Shown: one piece after another, positions 27,001 through 30,000 of the stretch
How the letters are laid out: the number at the start of each line of letters is the position of its first letter
How positions within the stretch are numbered: the stretch's first letter is position 1
Source: an uncultured delta proteobacterium
GTDB taxonomy: Bacteria > Desulfobacterota > Desulfobaccia > Desulfobaccales > 0-14-0-80-60-11
DNA: 64,000 bases
Reading direction: 5' to 3'
NCBI GenBank assembly: GCA_963812015.1
Contig: CAWETI010000003.1
Location: 1,888,001-1,952,000, forward strand
Program-made: the position numbers

Positions 27001-30000
27001 GCCACAGGGGTCATACGGTGCTTATTTTAACCCGCAAGATCGGTGAAAGTATTCTGATAGGCGACAATATCCGGGTGGTGGTTTTGGAAGTGCGCGGCCG
27101 ACAAATCCGGCTGGGCATTGAGGCCCCTACGGATATTGTGGTGCTGAGAGAGGAAATCGCTCAACGCCTCGCCGATGAAAACCTTCAGGCGGCCAATTCC
27201 CAGTTCCAGGACGTACAGCAGGCGCTCAAGTCCTTGGAACCCAAGGTAGTTTGCCGCAAGCCCTTGCGGCCAAGCCAGCCTGGATCTCCCACCGTCATCA
27301 TCGACTCCAAGGCCTTAGGCCAGGTAACGGTGCCGGAAGACCGCATCATTACCTTCGCCGCGGGACTGCCCGGATTTCCCGATTTCCAGCGGTATGCCCT
27401 GCTCAATGGCCAGGTGGCACCGCCGTTCTATTATCTCCAATGCGTAGATAACCCCTCCCTGGCTCTTATAGTGACCGACCCCACCACCTTAGTGCCGGAT
27501 TATCAATCCAAAAACGGCGGGAGCACCTTAAAGGAATTGTGCGCTCAAAGCTACGAGGACTTGCAGGTCCTGGTAACCCTGACCATACCCCCTGGCCGCC
27601 CCCGGGAAATGACCGCGAACTTGATGAGTCCGCTCCTGATTAACCCGGAACTGCGTTTGGGCAAACAGGTAGTCATCGAAAAGTCGCCGTATTCCCATCA
27701 GTATCCGGTGTTATCTTTGAGACCAGGCTGCCAGCCCCAAGGGAACGGGAACAGTAATTCATTGAATGAAGGCTCATGATGTTCTCTTTTGTGAACATCT
27801 TTCCTAACCTGATCCCCTATCACGATTACCCCCCACACCTCCTAACCTTAAAAATCGATTAGGGGGGCCCCGAACCCGCCTGGTTGGTTTTCGCCAAAGG
27901 GAACGAGCCTTCCCTTCGGCGCCCCTTGACCGAAAAACTTCCCGGCTCGCCGCCCCTGCCAACGACTGCCCCGGCGCCATCATCCCACGGGTAAGGGGCC
28001 GCCCCGCCTCGATTAGCTTGGGGATTATTCACCAGGCAAAGTCATCGGGGAAAAAGTCTTCTCGAAATTCCGCCTGACCCCGTCAATGGCCGCTGGTAAG
28101 CCACCAGCTGAACCTAAGGTGACCGGGCCTGGGGAAATAAGCCATCCCCTGATTCTTTTTCTTGGGCTTTATTATTGATGGAGGTTTTGATATATTTATT
28201 AGGCAATATCAATTGCTGAGAGTGCGGTTCTTGCGATGGTAACCCCTCATTGTGTAAAGGGAAACGCCAACTGAGATTTTTTTCCAGCGTCCATCAATTA
28301 TATTGACATTTTCCTTTGTGCGCATATATTATGGCCTGGAAAGGAGTTTGTTGGCTTTTTCTCATTTACTCCACTGGGGGAGGAGAAGCCGGTAATCAAC
28401 CTTAGCAAAAAGGAGGAAGGTGTATGCGGTCTAAATTGTTGGTCGGGTTGCTGGTGGTAGTGGTCGCGGTATTTTTCGTCTCTTCCCTCGCTACGGCTCA
28501 AAAGTTGGGAAGCGCTAAGTTGCTGTGCGTCTCCAAGAAAGAGCTGAAGGGCGAAGAGACTGTGGCTTCGTGCATGGCCAAAGGGGAACGGTTTGCCATC
28601 GTTGATCCTTATGGCATGGTGCGCATCTTAAGCCCGGAAGAAATAGAACTGACCAAGGCTTTTAATCCCAAAGCCTTCGAGACCCGGGCCTTTGGTATGA
28701 GATATCAGCAGTTGGCTCCGGCGCTGCCGCCCATGCCGTCTTTGACCCAGGAAGCTCCGTAAGTCTATTTGCCAACTTCACTTCAGTATGCAGATGGCCC
28801 CCAAAGTGCGCTTTGGGGGCTTTCTCTTTAACATGAGAGGTTTTTATGCTTGAGATCGATGACCTCTGGGTAAATATCGACGACAAGGAGGTGCTCAAGG
28901 GCATCAACCTCCGGGTGCCCGTGGGGGAGACCCATATCCTCTTTGGCAAGAACGGCTCGGGCAAATCCAGCCTGCTCATGGCCATCATGGGTTTCGAACG
29001 CTATCAGGTGAAGCAGGGCCGGATCAGCTTCCTGGGCCAGGATATCACCCAACTGCCCACCTATGAGCGGGCCCGCCTGGGCCTGGGCCTCTCCTTCCAG
29101 CGCCCCCCCACTATCCGGGGCGTCAAGACTGCGGACCTCTTGCGGGTCTGCTCCCGGGGCGTCGTCGCCCCCGAGGCCCTGGCCGCGGTGTATGATTTTA
29201 CCCCGTTTCTGGAGCGAGAGGTCAATTACGGCTTTTCCGGGGGGGAGATCAAGCGCTCCGAACTCCTGCAATTGCTGGCCCAGAACCCCAAGATGGTGCT
29301 CCTGGACGAACCGGAGTCGGGGGTGGACCTGGAGAACCTCCAGGTAGTGGGGAAGATCATCGCCCACCTGCTCCAAAAGGAGCGCCGCCGCCAGCACCGG
29401 GAAAAATCCGGCCTGATCATCACCCACACCGGCTTCATCATGGATTACGTCAACGCCGATCGGGCTTACATCCTGGGCGACGGCCGCATCTGCTGCCACG
29501 GCAACCCCGGGGAGCTCCTGCACGATATCAAGAACTTCGGTTACGAGGAATGCGCCAAATGTCGCAGATAAAAAACCGGGCCGAGGAGAGTCGGCATAAA
29601 AAAGCCGCCTTCGGGTCTGATCTTAACCTGGAGGAGTTTTCCCGTCAGGGGGGCGCCTGGGAATACGACCCGGACTACCGGCAGTTTTCCCCGGAGGAAC
29701 GGAGCCGCCTGCTCACCACCGGCATCGAGCTCACTGACGAAGATCATGCCGCCACCTTCCTCCAGGCCGACAAGGCCATCGTCCACTGTCAGACCCGGCA
29801 ACCGGGGGTTGAAGTCCTGCCCATCACCGAAGCGGTGCGCCGCCACGGCTGGGTCAATAACCTCCTCTGGGGCCTGGTGGCGGTGGATGCCGACAAATAC
29901 ACCGCCGCCGCCGAGCTGGAGTTGGACAACGGGTATTTCATCAGGGCCCTCCAAGGGGCTCAAATCGCCCAGCCGGTGGAATCGTGCCTCTACCTGCGCA

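Follow-up and report, generated by a model that had tools for sequence, protein, structure and literature searches.

Few post-transcriptional regulators are as widespread as CsrA, whose only well-understood protein antagonist, apart from CesT in enterobacteria, is to our knowledge FliW. What becomes of this pair when the flagellum is lost, and what can an antagonist do once it is joined to its own target? These questions are raised by a locus in a 64,000-nucleotide window, the whole stretch of DNA analyzed here, from the genome of an uncultured delta proteobacterium (G000). In this group, related to sulfate reducers, a known flagellar switch has survived the loss of the flagellum as a naturally occurring single chain. 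Such a chain is a natural experiment in the roles of FliW and CsrA beyond flagellin homeostasis, and in how far tethering alters an allosteric inhibitor-target pair.

CsrA and FliW are encoded in one open frame

The frame from 26796 to 27779 encodes both CsrA and FliW in one uninterrupted reading, as a first-pass annotation of the genome had reported. That annotation had also placed the true start well inside its own gene call, and we agree. We chose the GTG at 27018 because it is preceded by AGGGG and opens the conserved N terminus MLILTRK, because many of the 120 listed homologs are 253 amino acids (aa) long, and because the in-frame upstream extensions of relatives differ widely in length. 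The genera of the order are given here by number (g1, g2, and so on), G000 belonging to g1; an A.AGG block upstream of the gene is kept in the g1 alignment. The long frame opens with a TTG (26796) that falls within the -12 element of a sigma-54-type promoter (Table 1).

In the 253-aa reading, both Pfam domains score well above cut-off, CsrA at residues 2 to 51 (5.5e-20; 71.5 bits versus 27) and FliW at residues 111 to 231 (2.2e-34; 118.3 bits versus 25). The CsrA part also passed the curated models TIGR00202 (76.3 versus a cut-off of 70.1) and PRK01712 (77.6 versus 73), and the FliW part stayed below cut-off in all six NCBIfam FliW equivalog models (best, 114 versus 130). The FliW domain matched the sequences of PDB entries 2aj7 and 5dmb_A, and its N201 and Q217 are equivalent to N108 and Q124 of Bacillus subtilis FliW. 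A linker of ~60 residues had been described between the two domains. This is an effect of the Pfam boundaries and not a new element, as residues 61 to 93 are collinear with the CsrA tail and the FliW N-terminal extension of relatives in which the genes are split. Leaving G046 aside, the fliW start of these relatives lies at -8 to +29 nt from the csrA stop. The junction has a pLDDT of 60 to 70 and a dN/dS of ~0.5.

Table 1. Features of the csrA-fliW locus, in positions of the window
Feature	Positions	Strand	Description
mfd	22760..26299	-	Divergent upstream neighbor; marks the deletion scar of the late flagellar cluster
Predicted sigma-54-type promoter	26785..26800	+	TGGCA-N6-TTGCA (GG-N10-GC); 233 nt 5' of the start codon
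Leader, ~205 nt	26812..27017	+	5' end placed from the promoter position; GGA at 26841, 26845, 26923, 26940, and 26949
Shine-Dalgarno-like AGGGG	27006..27010	+	7 nt 5' of GTG; read from the sequence
csrA-fliW fusion gene	27018..27779	+	253 codons plus TGA; GTG start
CsrA core, residues 1-60	27018..27197	+	Beta strands and helix 45-59 with N55 (codon 27180-27182)
Junction, residues 61-93	27198..27296	+	Former CsrA C-terminal tail (helix 63-71) and former Pro/Ser-rich N-terminal extension of FliW
FliW domain, residues 94-233	27297..27716	+	Contains N201 and Q217 (codon 27666-27668)
C-terminal tail, residues 234-253	27717..27776	+	Disordered, pLDDT <50; poorly conserved, mostly gaps outside g1

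The fusion is confined to three genera and, by two trees, arose once

Reading frames were checked in the 37 genomes of g1, g4, and g8, which yielded 34 complete uninterrupted fusions and one partial one. The fusion was present in 16 of the 18 g1 genomes, including G000 (the two without it are 87% and 56% complete), and in all 15 g8 genomes; the four g4 genomes held three complete copies and one cut by a contig end. The first-pass annotation had counted g2, g9, and g13 among the fused genera as well, but there the two genes are parted by stop codons, and unbroken frames are limited to g1, g4, and g8. In G018 (g2) and G065 (g13), as in the flagellated G068 (g14), csrA ends in a stop codon and fliW has its own start, the two sharing a frame by chance. 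In G046 (g9), csrA is frameshifted with three stops and the pair looks decayed, and in g16 FliW has been lost outright; by these last two cases, some flagellum-less relatives can do without the module.

A protein search returned 325 homologs at E<=1e-3, roughly reproducing the 340 counted earlier, and the best 120, drawn from JGI, ENA, NCBI, and Logan records, were all 232 to 291 aa long and carried both domains. The three fused genera are just 45 to 55% identical overall. Fused rows formed one clade in a tree of CsrA plus FliW (support 98/90; 49 rows) and in a tree of Mfd, built from tblastn pieces (support 100/99; 41 rows; 1 change). The nearest kin of this clade, g3 plus g13, and also g2, are flagellum-less yet split. 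Both trees give a single fusion event in the common ancestor of g1, g4, and g8, nested within a flagellum-less clade; this family underwent one flagellar loss and one fusion, in that order. This weakens the earlier proposal that FliW was tethered because flagellin was gone, as the loss came first, the split pairs of g2, g3, and g13 persist, and no fusion arose after two further flagellar losses within the order. The steps from split and flagellated, through split and flagellum-less, to fused, decayed, and FliW lost are all visible within this one order.

CsrA-FliW single chains also occur elsewhere

The locus had been presented as the first natural fusion of CsrA with an antagonist, a claim that does not hold. 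Among 35 hits picked for a Pfam scan from a representative search, 18 had CsrA and FliW on one chain, one of them in reverse order, and the ESM Atlas holds two clusters of such chains. A contig search with the fusion protein gave 2 fused loci out of 40 (L054 and L055), the others being adjacent genes joined by tblastn. P0271, a protein of 222 aa seen on 152 contigs, resembles the fusion studied here in carrying CsrA and then FliW. It differs in being only ~35% identical and in having a shorter junction (the FliW Pfam match begins at residue 91 rather than 111). It differs also in setting, being at locus L094 the last gene of a flgN-flgK-flgL operon, whereas our fusion belongs to a flagellum-less clade. 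Given this operon, P0271 presumably still works with flagellin, and the fusion studied here arose independently of it. Natural CsrA-FliW chains are labeled in databases just as "FliW" or "CsrA," and our literature search found no paper on them.

The flagellum is gone and csrA-fliW was left behind

Whole-genome searches of the G000 assembly (3.96 Mb in 6 contigs; completeness, 99.86%; contamination, 5.72%) returned no match to Flagellin_N, Flg_bb_rod, FHIPEP, FliG_C, Flagellin_C, or FliS, all of which gave matches in 3 to 4 of 14 control genomes. The same was true of flagellin in the other genomes of the fused genera (0/17 in g1, 0/4 in g4, and 0/15 in g8), where FlhA was likewise missing. FlgM-like and FliA-type sigma genes were found in G000. 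The genome is as first described, lacking flagellin and the other flagellar families searched for while keeping FlgM, a FliA-type sigma factor, and a second, free CsrA. Together with the unbroken frames and the homologs, these searches establish that a conserved protein joining CsrA to FliW is genuinely present in a lineage without flagella.

The distance between mfd and csrA is ~0.6 to 0.7 kb in g1, g2, g3, g4, g9, and g13, compared with 8.5 to 9.2 kb, by coordinates, in flagellated genera. In G052 and G063 this gap holds a rod gene, flgA, flgH, flgK, and flgL, to which G052 adds matches to flgI and flgN. A flagellar block of ~9 kb next to mfd was deleted and csrA-fliW was spared. The flanks contain mfd and Hdr/MvhD-like, formate-dehydrogenase-like, and redox genes, and a comparison of flanks revealed no conserved neighbor common to all fused genera that might hint at a partner. 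A small open reading frame (ORF) downstream (28424-28762) carries GGA-rich motifs in its leader, is strongly covered by RNA contigs, and was considered as a CsrA target or a new FliW ligand. As a specific partner it was discarded, since this gene also lies behind csrA-fliW in the flagellated g14 and g7 and adjoins the fusion in just one other g1 locus. No Rfam family was found between 26200 and 28900 at E<=1.

RNA-binding and docking residues are kept, and the flagellin side is relaxed

We compared 34 fused genome copies with 27 flagellated sequences and kept 25 fused proteins as a separate set. Across the 34 fused sequences, L2, L4, R6, R31, V42, R44, E46, and N55 of CsrA and T199, N201, P205, G215, and Q217 of FliW were invariant, and K7 and K216 had a genus-weighted consensus of 0.87 and 0.93, respectively. 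In the set of 25, L2, L4, R6, K7, and R44 were invariant and N55 was present in at least 90%. L2, L4, R6, and K7 are residues of the CsrA core that we take to be the RNA-binding residues of strands beta1/beta5, and the work of Mercante from 2006 is said to have given residues other than R44 a role in RNA binding. R44 itself has been described as crucial for RNA binding, with N55 also required in Campylobacter jejuni (PMC7829508), and N55-Q124 has been reported as the invariant CsrA-FliW contact pair of B. subtilis (bioRxiv 10.1101/2020.07.02.184341). Within the CsrA-docking cluster (N108, A111, and Q124 in B. subtilis), the fused proteins keep N201 and Q217 without exception and have S, A, or G at position 204.

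Other positions have drifted. T97, F100, L118, F120, M198, and G204 were invariant in the 27 flagellated sequences and variable in the fused ones, and they lie within or beside the segments of B. subtilis FliW reported to be protected by flagellin (3-11, 22-28, and 95-115; PMC6070490). Q109, E130, H131, W139, Y162, and H227 were relaxed as well. In every split relative the CsrA tail carries the tryptophan W73; the fused clade has lost it, along with the CsrA tail motif. At the position aligned with the fliW start, M accounts for 0.61 to 0.67 in the split groups, and the fused sequences lack a consensus. In the fused proteins, no alignment column had acquired a different conserved residue, the changed positions having turned variable, and only six columns were more conserved (L23, Q49, E54, P88, F113, and R194); there is thus no marker of a new ligand site.

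Median dN/dS values by the NG86 method, which is rough at the dS of 0.7 to 1.0 seen here, were 0.13/0.20/0.28 for the CsrA core and 0.26/0.40/0.41 for FliW in the fused g1/g8/g4. The flagellated g11/g12/g7 gave 0.05/0.06/0.15 and 0.10/0.20/0.12. Values in the fused genera are thus 2 to 3 times higher but well below 1. Both fused domains are under purifying selection, and the 2- to 3-fold weaker constraint fits a partial loss of function.

Predicted structure

The monomer model (pLDDT, 81; pTM, 0.77) recovered the beta-barrel-like fold of FliW, and residues 51 to 60, the end of the docking helix, reached a pLDDT of 95. Foldseek matched the model of the FliW domain to 2aj7, 5dmd, 5jak, and 5dmb_A (TM-score by target, 0.82 to 0.91; root mean square deviation, 1.7 to 2.0 Å). 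A homodimer was predicted with a score of 0.56, against 0.00 for the best of three controls, although CsrA dimers have been solved and the prediction may merely reproduce those structures. Among proteins of known structure, 20 of 30 homodimers and 1 of 23 monomers reached the mark for a dimer, rates that apply roughly, since our own alignment was used. The runs agreed in at least 85% of contacts with a partner pLDDT of at least 77, and the interface comprised residues 1 to 48 of both copies. The complex prediction contained no confident FliW contact across chains.

The gene has its own predicted promoter and a GGA-rich leader

The ten consensus positions of the promoter in Table 1 are identical in 16 of 16 g1 genomes, with a 6-nt spacer that varies. 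The motif also occurs in g2 (1/1), g13 (2/2), and g8 (8/15), matches at 9 of 10 positions in g9, and is missing from the g4 (0/3) and g3 (0/1) genomes. By chance, a match of at least 9/10 arose in 26 of 2,000 shuffled upstream regions. With this consensus and with rpoN found in G000, the element is a predicted sigma-54-dependent promoter. A scan for sigma-70 promoters and terminators found nothing convincing 5' of the gene; inside the coding region it gave two promoter-like sites, both weak, and one resembling a terminator.

We dropped the idea that the promoter was inherited from an flgL operon promoter. Its 16-mer lies 1.14 to 1.27 kb 5' of csrA in 6 of 10 flagellated loci, but inside the flgL coding frame, where it encodes LAEELQ or LAEDLH, in the loci whose frame was recovered (G068, G027, and G025). 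In G052 it lies, by coordinates, ~55 nt inside the flgL ORF. No FlgL remnant was seen 5' of csrA in the flagellum-less genomes (best tblastn E, 0.31).

GGA occurs 136 times in 27 leaders, versus 90.8 expected from shuffles, and recurs near -70 and -10; these are possible sites of CsrA autoregulation. Of the RNA-library contigs, that of a 93%-identical relative covers 26955 to 27442, from the leader through the junction and into FliW, which is no proof of transcription. The RNA contigs, from four runs, are those of relatives and bridge the junction but carry no transcript ends, strand, or level, and stretches that they leave uncovered are uninformative; 15 RNA runs each contained only 5 to 7% of the sampled words.

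A proposed self-inhibited CsrA released by something other than flagellin

Taken together, we favor a self-inhibited CsrA with a tethered FliW that no longer senses flagellin and is released by a non-flagellin partner or signal, a reading to which we assign a probability of about 0.5. The adjacent and translationally coupled csrA and fliW once closed a late flagellar operon of the order rod gene, flgA, flgH, flgI, flgN, flgK, flgL, csrA, fliW, and merged into one frame after the flagellum was lost and the block between mfd and csrA was deleted. The CsrA part is predicted to dimerize via its N-terminal beta strands, so that each chain would bring its own FliW, placed 34 residues behind the FliW-docking helix. 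FliW would then dock in cis on the N55 helix via the N201/Q217 cluster and hold the CsrA dimer in a state of low RNA affinity at a fixed 1:1 stoichiometry. As the RNA-binding residues are still strictly kept, this inhibition must at times be relieved, most probably when a partner or signal other than flagellin engages the face of FliW that flagellin once used. Transcription in g1 from the gene's own sigma-54 promoter would mean that an enhancer-binding protein sets the amount made, and the GGA motifs of the leader suggest self-repression. As the stoichiometry is fixed by the single chain, auto-inhibition and release should be easy to test in vitro, and the protein may offer a compact natural template for engineered RNA-binding switches.

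What might the release signal be? With the flagellin gene missing, flagellin can no longer be FliW's partner; the Flagellin_N and Flagellin_C searches of G000 left no flagellin to compete or to be repressed. By analogy with related systems, a new ligand of the FliW domain is plausible. It is possible, and we put this forward only tentatively, that the protein is a one-polypeptide switch in which FliW has been re-aimed at a non-flagellin protein, such as a sigma factor, whose binding would free CsrA to repress mRNAs. A sigma factor comes to mind because FliW has been reported to bind one, TcdR, as a non-flagellin partner in Clostridioides difficile (PMC11898703) and because G000 keeps FliA and FlgM. 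If true, a flagellar homeostasis circuit would have been recycled whole for another purpose.

Alternatively, the tethered FliW might merely lower the RNA affinity of CsrA with nothing ever displacing it, activity being set purely by protein amount through the sigma-54 promoter and self-repression. Such a protein needs no new conserved surface and no conserved partner gene nearby, and none was seen; it does need both the RNA-binding and the FliW-contact residues, which are kept, and its own promoter and GGA-bearing leader suit it. Fusions where flagellin is present suggest, too, that tethering is workable. We nonetheless consider this explanation rather unlikely. One FliW per CsrA dimer has been reported to suffice to block RNA binding in B. 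subtilis (bioRxiv 10.1101/2020.07.02.184341), so two tethered copies should silence the protein unless the affinity has dropped, and the face of FliW beyond the CsrA contact is under purifying selection overall (dN/dS, 0.26 to 0.41).

It is also conceivable, if improbable, that the fusion is a decaying relic without positive function, in which FliW permanently silences CsrA and is retained, and joined on, only since losing FliW alone would free a harmful CsrA. The relaxed constraint, which includes W73 and the flagellin-side positions, might be explained in this way, as might the decayed g9 copy, the loss of FliW in g16, and the additional free copies of CsrA that 19 of 42 genomes of the flagellum-less clade carry. 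However, a silenced CsrA should first lose its RNA-binding residues, which are invariant across three genera, and the dN/dS values lie far below 1. The flagellar deletion also ended exactly at csrA, and the promoter was kept throughout g1. In 9 g1 genomes, two of them rated 100% complete, no CsrA other than the fusion was matched, and the free CsrA of G000 is a protein of 53 aa with R6 replaced and without the N55 helix. Finally, a fusion could be mimicked by a stop codon lost through faulty sequencing or assembly, or by a mistaken gene call, since g2, g13, and g14 have the pair in one frame with a single stop and most surveyed genomes are fragmented into many contigs, but the odds of this are negligible given uninterrupted frames in 35 of 37 genomes (one of them in a single contig, G038) and in the 120 listed homologs, and a fused clade lacking both a fliW start codon and the CsrA tail motif.

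Relation to known FliW-CsrA systems

The fusion shares its two protein families with the Hag-FliW-CsrA switch of B. subtilis and the Geobacillus thermodenitrificans complex 5DMB. The docking hot spots are the same (CsrA N55 and FliW N108/Q124, here N55 and N201/Q217), as are the CsrA C-terminal extension and an origin at the end of a late flagellar operon. Unlike in B. subtilis, there is one polypeptide with the gene order csrA then fliW, and there is no flagellin, flagellin mRNA target, FliS, or export apparatus. The positions in the flagellin-protected segments are relaxed, and the D41-K123 salt bridge of Bacillales is not kept on the CsrA side, where residue 41 is V.

Two reports place the separate proteins in settings beyond motility. 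Nonmotile C. difficile clade 5 is reported to keep FliC-FliW-CsrA, a module that outlives the flagellum and controls traits other than motility (PMC11898703); as described there, the flagellin gene is kept and the proteins are separate, whereas here flagellin is gone and the regulators are fused. The FliW-CsrA pair of Geobacter sulfurreducens, placed in the class Desulfuromonadia, is reported to control biofilm and electron transfer and not motility alone (PMC13407953), and in that account, too, FliW and CsrA are separate proteins, unlike the single chain found here.

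The fusion gene and its product

Taken together, the data show what appears, from its sequence, to be a functional single-chain CsrA-FliW protein of single origin that arose after loss of the flagellum. Residues below are numbered along its 253-residue product (CsrA, 1-60; junction, 61-93; FliW, 94-233; tail, 234-253).

Coordinates of features in and around the csrA-fliW gene, counted from the first base of the window
Feature	Position	Strand	Remark
Open frame	26796..27779	+	327 aa if read from TTG
csrA-fliW start codon GTG	27018	+	CsrA sequence VLILTRK... opens here; 253 residues
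AGGGG	27006-27010	+	7 nt before GTG 27018
Sigma-54-type motif	26785-26800		TGGCA-N6-TTGCA
Small ORF	28424-28762		112 aa; just upstream of sufC
Sigma-70-like promoter of small ORF	28303-28330		11/12 match

The protein matches Pfam CsrA at residues 2-51 (5.5e-20) and FliW at 111-231 (2.2e-34). It scores above the cut-off of NCBIfam CsrA models (TIGR00202, 76.3 versus 70.1) and below that of all six NCBIfam FliW equivalog models (best, 114 versus 130). Solved CsrA chains align to residues 2-66, and the solved FliW structures 2aj7 (Bacillus halodurans) and 5dmb_A (Geobacillus) align to residues 94-232. An AlphaFold2 monomer model built on an alignment of 25 fused homologs (pLDDT 81, pTM 0.77) has strands at 6-35 and helices at 45-59 and 63-71, with residues 51-60 at pLDDT 95, followed by low-confidence coil as far as residue 91 and then the FliW domain, with the tail (234-253) disordered. 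Its FliW part superimposes on the solved FliW structures with TM-scores (target) of 0.82-0.91 and an rmsd of 1.7-2.0 Å.

A two-copy prediction scored 0.56 (best of three controls, 0.00), with contact agreement between dimer runs of at least 85% and partner pLDDT of at least 77. The mark for this score was reached by 20 of 30 solved one-chain pairs and 1 of 23 solved single chains, counts that are rough given the use of our own alignment. The confident predicted interface is formed by residues 1-48 in both copies and is the CsrA dimer; as CsrA dimers have already been solved, the predicted dimer is a likeness rather than proof. No FliW residue makes a confident cross-chain contact in the predicted complex, and this, together with the high monomer pTM and the very high confidence where the docking helix ends, leads us to infer that the FliW domain would dock in cis.

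Distribution and junction anatomy

The fusion protein served as query against the order's 83 genomes, and reading frames were checked at 50 loci plus 20 further flagellated loci. The fusion is uninterrupted in 16 of the 18 genomes of genus g1, including the window's genome, G000 (the remaining two are 87% and 56% complete), and in all 15 of g8, the one-contig genome G038 among them. The four genomes of g4 hold three complete fusions and one contig-end copy that is continuous from CsrA residue 48 into FliW. All other genera have csrA and fliW as two genes, except g16, which has CsrA only. The first-pass annotation had also placed the fusion in g2, g9, and one genome of g13, which was wrong. In G018 (g2) and G065 (g13), as in the flagellated G068 (g14), csrA ends in a stop and fliW has its own start 6-21 nt on, in the same frame. 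In G046 (g9; locus L039, 3990-4730), csrA is frameshifted after about residue 47, its tail motif runs on in a different frame that has K where N55 would be, and three stops lie ahead of a fliW with no obvious start; either the pair is decaying or the assembly is wrong here (the genome is 94% complete).

CsrA of the split relatives is 74-88 aa long with a conserved C-terminal ...(I/L/T/S)W(R/K/G)... motif, and their FliW begins with a Pro/Thr/Ser-rich extension of 15-20 residues. With G046 excluded, their fliW start lies -8 to +29 nt from the stop codon of csrA, a spacing indicative of translational coupling. Fused proteins from g1, g4, and g8 differ from one another by one single-residue gap and are collinear with the split CsrA tail plus FliW extension. 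Residues 61-93 are thus old sequence and not a new linker, and the linker of ~60 residues described earlier simply measures the gap left by the Pfam model boundaries. In the fusion, fliW has lost its start codon, the aligned position being M at 0.61-0.67 in the split groups and without consensus in the fused one.

Flagellar loss and origin of the fusion

G000 (3.96 Mb, six contigs; completeness 99.86%, contamination 5.72%) gave no match to Flagellin_N, Flagellin_C, Flg_bb_rod, FHIPEP (FlhA), FliG_C, or FliS, searches that were each positive in 3-4 of 14 control genomes. It has one FliW match, the fusion, and two CsrA matches, the fusion and a free copy. An FlgM-like anti-sigma gene (G000:C3:1091972-1092097; 40.4 bits versus a cut-off of 25) and a FliA/WhiG-type sigma gene (G000:C3:1350212-1350892; 260.8 bits versus 189.6) remain in this genome without any of the flagellar structural genes searched for.

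Across the order, Flagellin_N and FHIPEP are both absent from g1, g2, g3, g4, g8, g9, g13, g16, and two g17 genomes (G080 and G082), and both present in g5, g6, g7, g10, g11, g12, g14, g15, G079, and G081, with the sole exception of the FHIPEP-less G059 (84% complete). A CsrA+FliW tree (49 rows, rooted on family f2, partial G020 excluded) places the flagellum-less genera of family f1 in one clade (98/89) and every fused row in one subclade, (g4,(g8,g1)), at 98/90. An Mfd tree (41 of the 83 genomes, preselected for near-full-length single matches; LG+G4, careful search) likewise unites the fused genera (100/99), with (g3,g13) as sister (90/92), and a 98/95 clade joins them with (g2,g9) and flagellated g12 in an unresolved trichotomy; the fewest changes on this tree are one for the fusion and three for flagellin. 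The Flagellin_N/FHIPEP pattern and these change counts point to about three flagellar losses in the order, with different outcomes. In the f1 clade the pair was retained, later fused once, and decayed in g9; in g16 CsrA was kept and FliW is gone; and G080 and G082 still have csrA and fliW as a split pair. The association of fusion with loss rests on a single event of each kind. G080 and G082 are 99% complete, their congeners G079 and G081 carry both families, and the flagellated-type HFG motif is intact in G080; this looks like a recent, independent loss.

Gene order bears on the same history. In the flagellated genera g5, g7, g10, g11, g12, and g14, mfd and csrA share a contig and are 8.5-9.2 kb apart. 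The gap in G052 holds a rod gene, flgA, flgH, flgI, flgN, flgK, and flgL, and behind it come csrA (76 aa) and fliW (156 aa). Matches in G063 gave flgA, flgH, flgK, and flgL, ordered as in G052; between flgH and flgK lie two minus-strand ORFs that matched no Pfam family. In g1, g2, g3, g4, g9, and g13, csrA has mfd directly next to it, divergently oriented and ~0.6-0.7 kb off. Flagellated G068 and G027 also have, 3' of csrA-fliW, the small ORF and sufC that lie downstream of the fusion. Selective retention is evident: the flagellar genes were excised as a block, and csrA-fliW stayed in place.

Residue conservation and likely mechanism

Conservation was compared, with weighting by genus, among 34 fused, 4 flagellum-less split, and 27 flagellated sequences; G030 and G082, for which no start codon was found, were left out, and G046 and G080 were set apart. 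Fused CsrA is invariant at L2, I3, L4, T5, R6, E10, G27, Q29, R31, G33, A36, P37, V42, R44, E46, and N55, with K7 the consensus at 0.87. Fused FliW is invariant at T199, A200, N201, P205, G215, and Q217, with K216 the consensus at 0.93, and the 5dmb_A alignment equates N201, G215, K216, and Q217 with B. subtilis N108, (G/A)122, K123, and Q124. CsrA N55 and FliW Q124 are described as an invariant contact pair required for FliW binding (bioRxiv 10.1101/2020.07.02.184341). For C. jejuni CsrA, N55 is reported to be required too, the last 15 residues to be dispensable, and R44 to be crucial for RNA binding (PMC7829508).

Relaxed in the fused group, and invariant or nearly so in flagellated kin, are CsrA W73 and FliW T97, F100, Q109, L118, F120, E130, H131, L138, W139, Y162, I187, M198, G204, R213, and H227. 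B. subtilis FliW is reported to be protected by flagellin at residues 3-11, 22-28, and 95-115 (PMC6070490); T97/F100, L118/F120, and M198/G204 lie in or beside the equivalents of these stretches. The N-terminal FliW motif TRNFG has become TRDLG, a change already present in the split flagellum-less genera. The comparison shows a fusion whose residues would keep RNA binding and the CsrA-FliW contact, the flagellin side apparently having been left to drift.

In B. subtilis, one FliW per CsrA dimer is reported to block RNA binding (bioRxiv 10.1101/2020.07.02.184341), yet the RNA-binding residues are invariant here. This favors, with a probability of about one-half, a regulator whose CsrA would be auto-inhibited by its own FliW domain, with relief by some non-flagellin input. 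The bolder idea of the first-pass annotation, that FliW may have been re-aimed at a new ligand, has a precedent in C. difficile, whose FliW is reported to bind TcdR (PMC11898703). It is possible, though doubtful, that the protein is instead a damper that works without a ligand; no column of the fused-group alignment has switched to a different conserved residue, and six positions (L23, Q49, E54, P88, F113, and R194) are more conserved in the fused group.

Selection was gauged by pairwise NG86 dN/dS medians over pairs with whole-gene dS of 0.1-1.5, which are rough at dS near 0.7-1.0. For fused g1/g8/g4 (118/101/3 pairs) versus flagellated g11/g12/g7 (24/21/3 pairs), these were 0.13/0.20/0.28 versus 0.05/0.06/0.15 in the CsrA core, 0.43/0.42/0.40 versus 0.15/0.11/0 in the CsrA tail, and 0.26/0.40/0.41 versus 0.10/0.20/0.12 in FliW. 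Judged by these ratios, constraint on the fusion is relaxed ~2-3 fold relative to flagellated kin, yet clearly present, and we consider a decaying relic decidedly improbable. A homolog search returned 325 database proteins at E ≤ 1e-3, every one of the best 120 being 232-291 aa long with both Pfam domains and many exactly 253 aa, and an artifact is scarcely credible.

Expression signals

In all 16 g1 upstream regions, one element alone is strongly conserved: TGGCA-N6-TTGCA, which precedes the start by 111-236 nt and has ten invariant consensus positions and a variable spacer; it reads as a sigma-54 -24/-12 pattern, and rpoN is present in G000. The motif also occurs in g2 (1/1), g13 (2/2), and g8 (8/15), g9 matches it at 9/10 positions, and it was not found upstream in g4 (0/3) or g3 (0/1); matches of at least 9/10 arose in 26 of 2,000 shuffled upstream regions. 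Its position in the window assigns the TTG of the long ORF to the -12 element. Six of 10 flagellated loci have a similar 16-mer 1.14-1.27 kb upstream of csrA. At the three loci where the flgL frame was recovered (L036, L048, and L053; ~1.14-1.21 kb upstream of csrA), the 5' flgL coding region contains a perfect TGGCA-N6-TTGCA that encodes LAEELQ or LAEDLH. Because this 16-mer lies within the flgL frame at the three loci and no FlgL remnant is detectable in upstream regions of flagellum-less genomes, we refrain from calling the promoter inherited.

The leaders contain 136 GGA motifs versus 90.8 expected, recurrent near -70 and -10, an excess that hints at self-repression. An Rfam search around the fusion gene found no family. 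Parts of the gene are covered by contigs of relatives from the RNA libraries of four studies. A 499-nt contig among them (93% identical) spans 26955-27442, junction included, which is compatible with a single transcript and not proof of transcription.

The small ORF before sufC has a hydrophobic N terminus, no Pfam match, and several GGA motifs in its leader. Near-identical RNA-library contigs from four studies are stacked on 28260-28450 (word depth up to 212), and homologs 77-80% identical precede sufC in g14 and g7.

CsrA paralogs and related chains elsewhere

The free CsrA of G000 (locus L002, 1501-1662; G000:C3:1493812-1493973) has 53 aa, ends before the N55 helix, and carries L in place of R6. 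Exactly one CsrA match was found in 30 of 32 genomes of flagellated genera (G056 has two csrA-fliW loci and G062 none), and none of the 32 has a match outside a csrA-fliW locus. Extra short copies are confined to the flagellum-less f1 clade, where they are patchy (19 of 42 genomes); in one of the 19, G043, the fusion itself is duplicated. Nine g1 genomes (completeness 72-100%, two rated 100%) have no CsrA match other than the fusion.

A profile-free search of 1.84 billion representatives returned 24,844 proteins at E ≤ 0.001, from which 35 were chosen for a Pfam scan by odd length or stretch pattern. Among these 35, CsrA and FliW share one chain in 18, one of which (P0195) has the reverse order, FliW-CsrA. 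There are also eight FliW-FliW tandems (P0129, P0136, P0141, P0144, P0145, P0161, P0185, and P0224), two CsrA tandems (P0225 and P0238, with two and four modules), and a CsrA joined to a glycosyltransferase domain (P0223). The CsrA-FliW chain P0271 (222 aa, ~35% identical to the window's fusion, on 152 contigs) is encoded by the last gene of an operon (locus L094) with a Rod-binding/M23 peptidase gene (flgJ-like), flgN, flgK, and flgL. The ESM Atlas holds two clusters named for both domains, with 68 and 89 members. Full-text searches, one of them covering 8.4 million texts, found no paper that names a CsrA-FliW fusion, and portions of a 2026 survey of CsrA diversity do not mention fusions (PMC13443453). 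As far as searched, the single-chain design is visible in databases and undescribed in the literature. Finally, protein P0130 has 2,715 aa and 21 query-matching stretches, the top-scoring one corresponding to query residues 110-146; its Pfam scan gave no family at E ≤ 0.001, and it may be a giant repeat protein made of a FliW-like segment.
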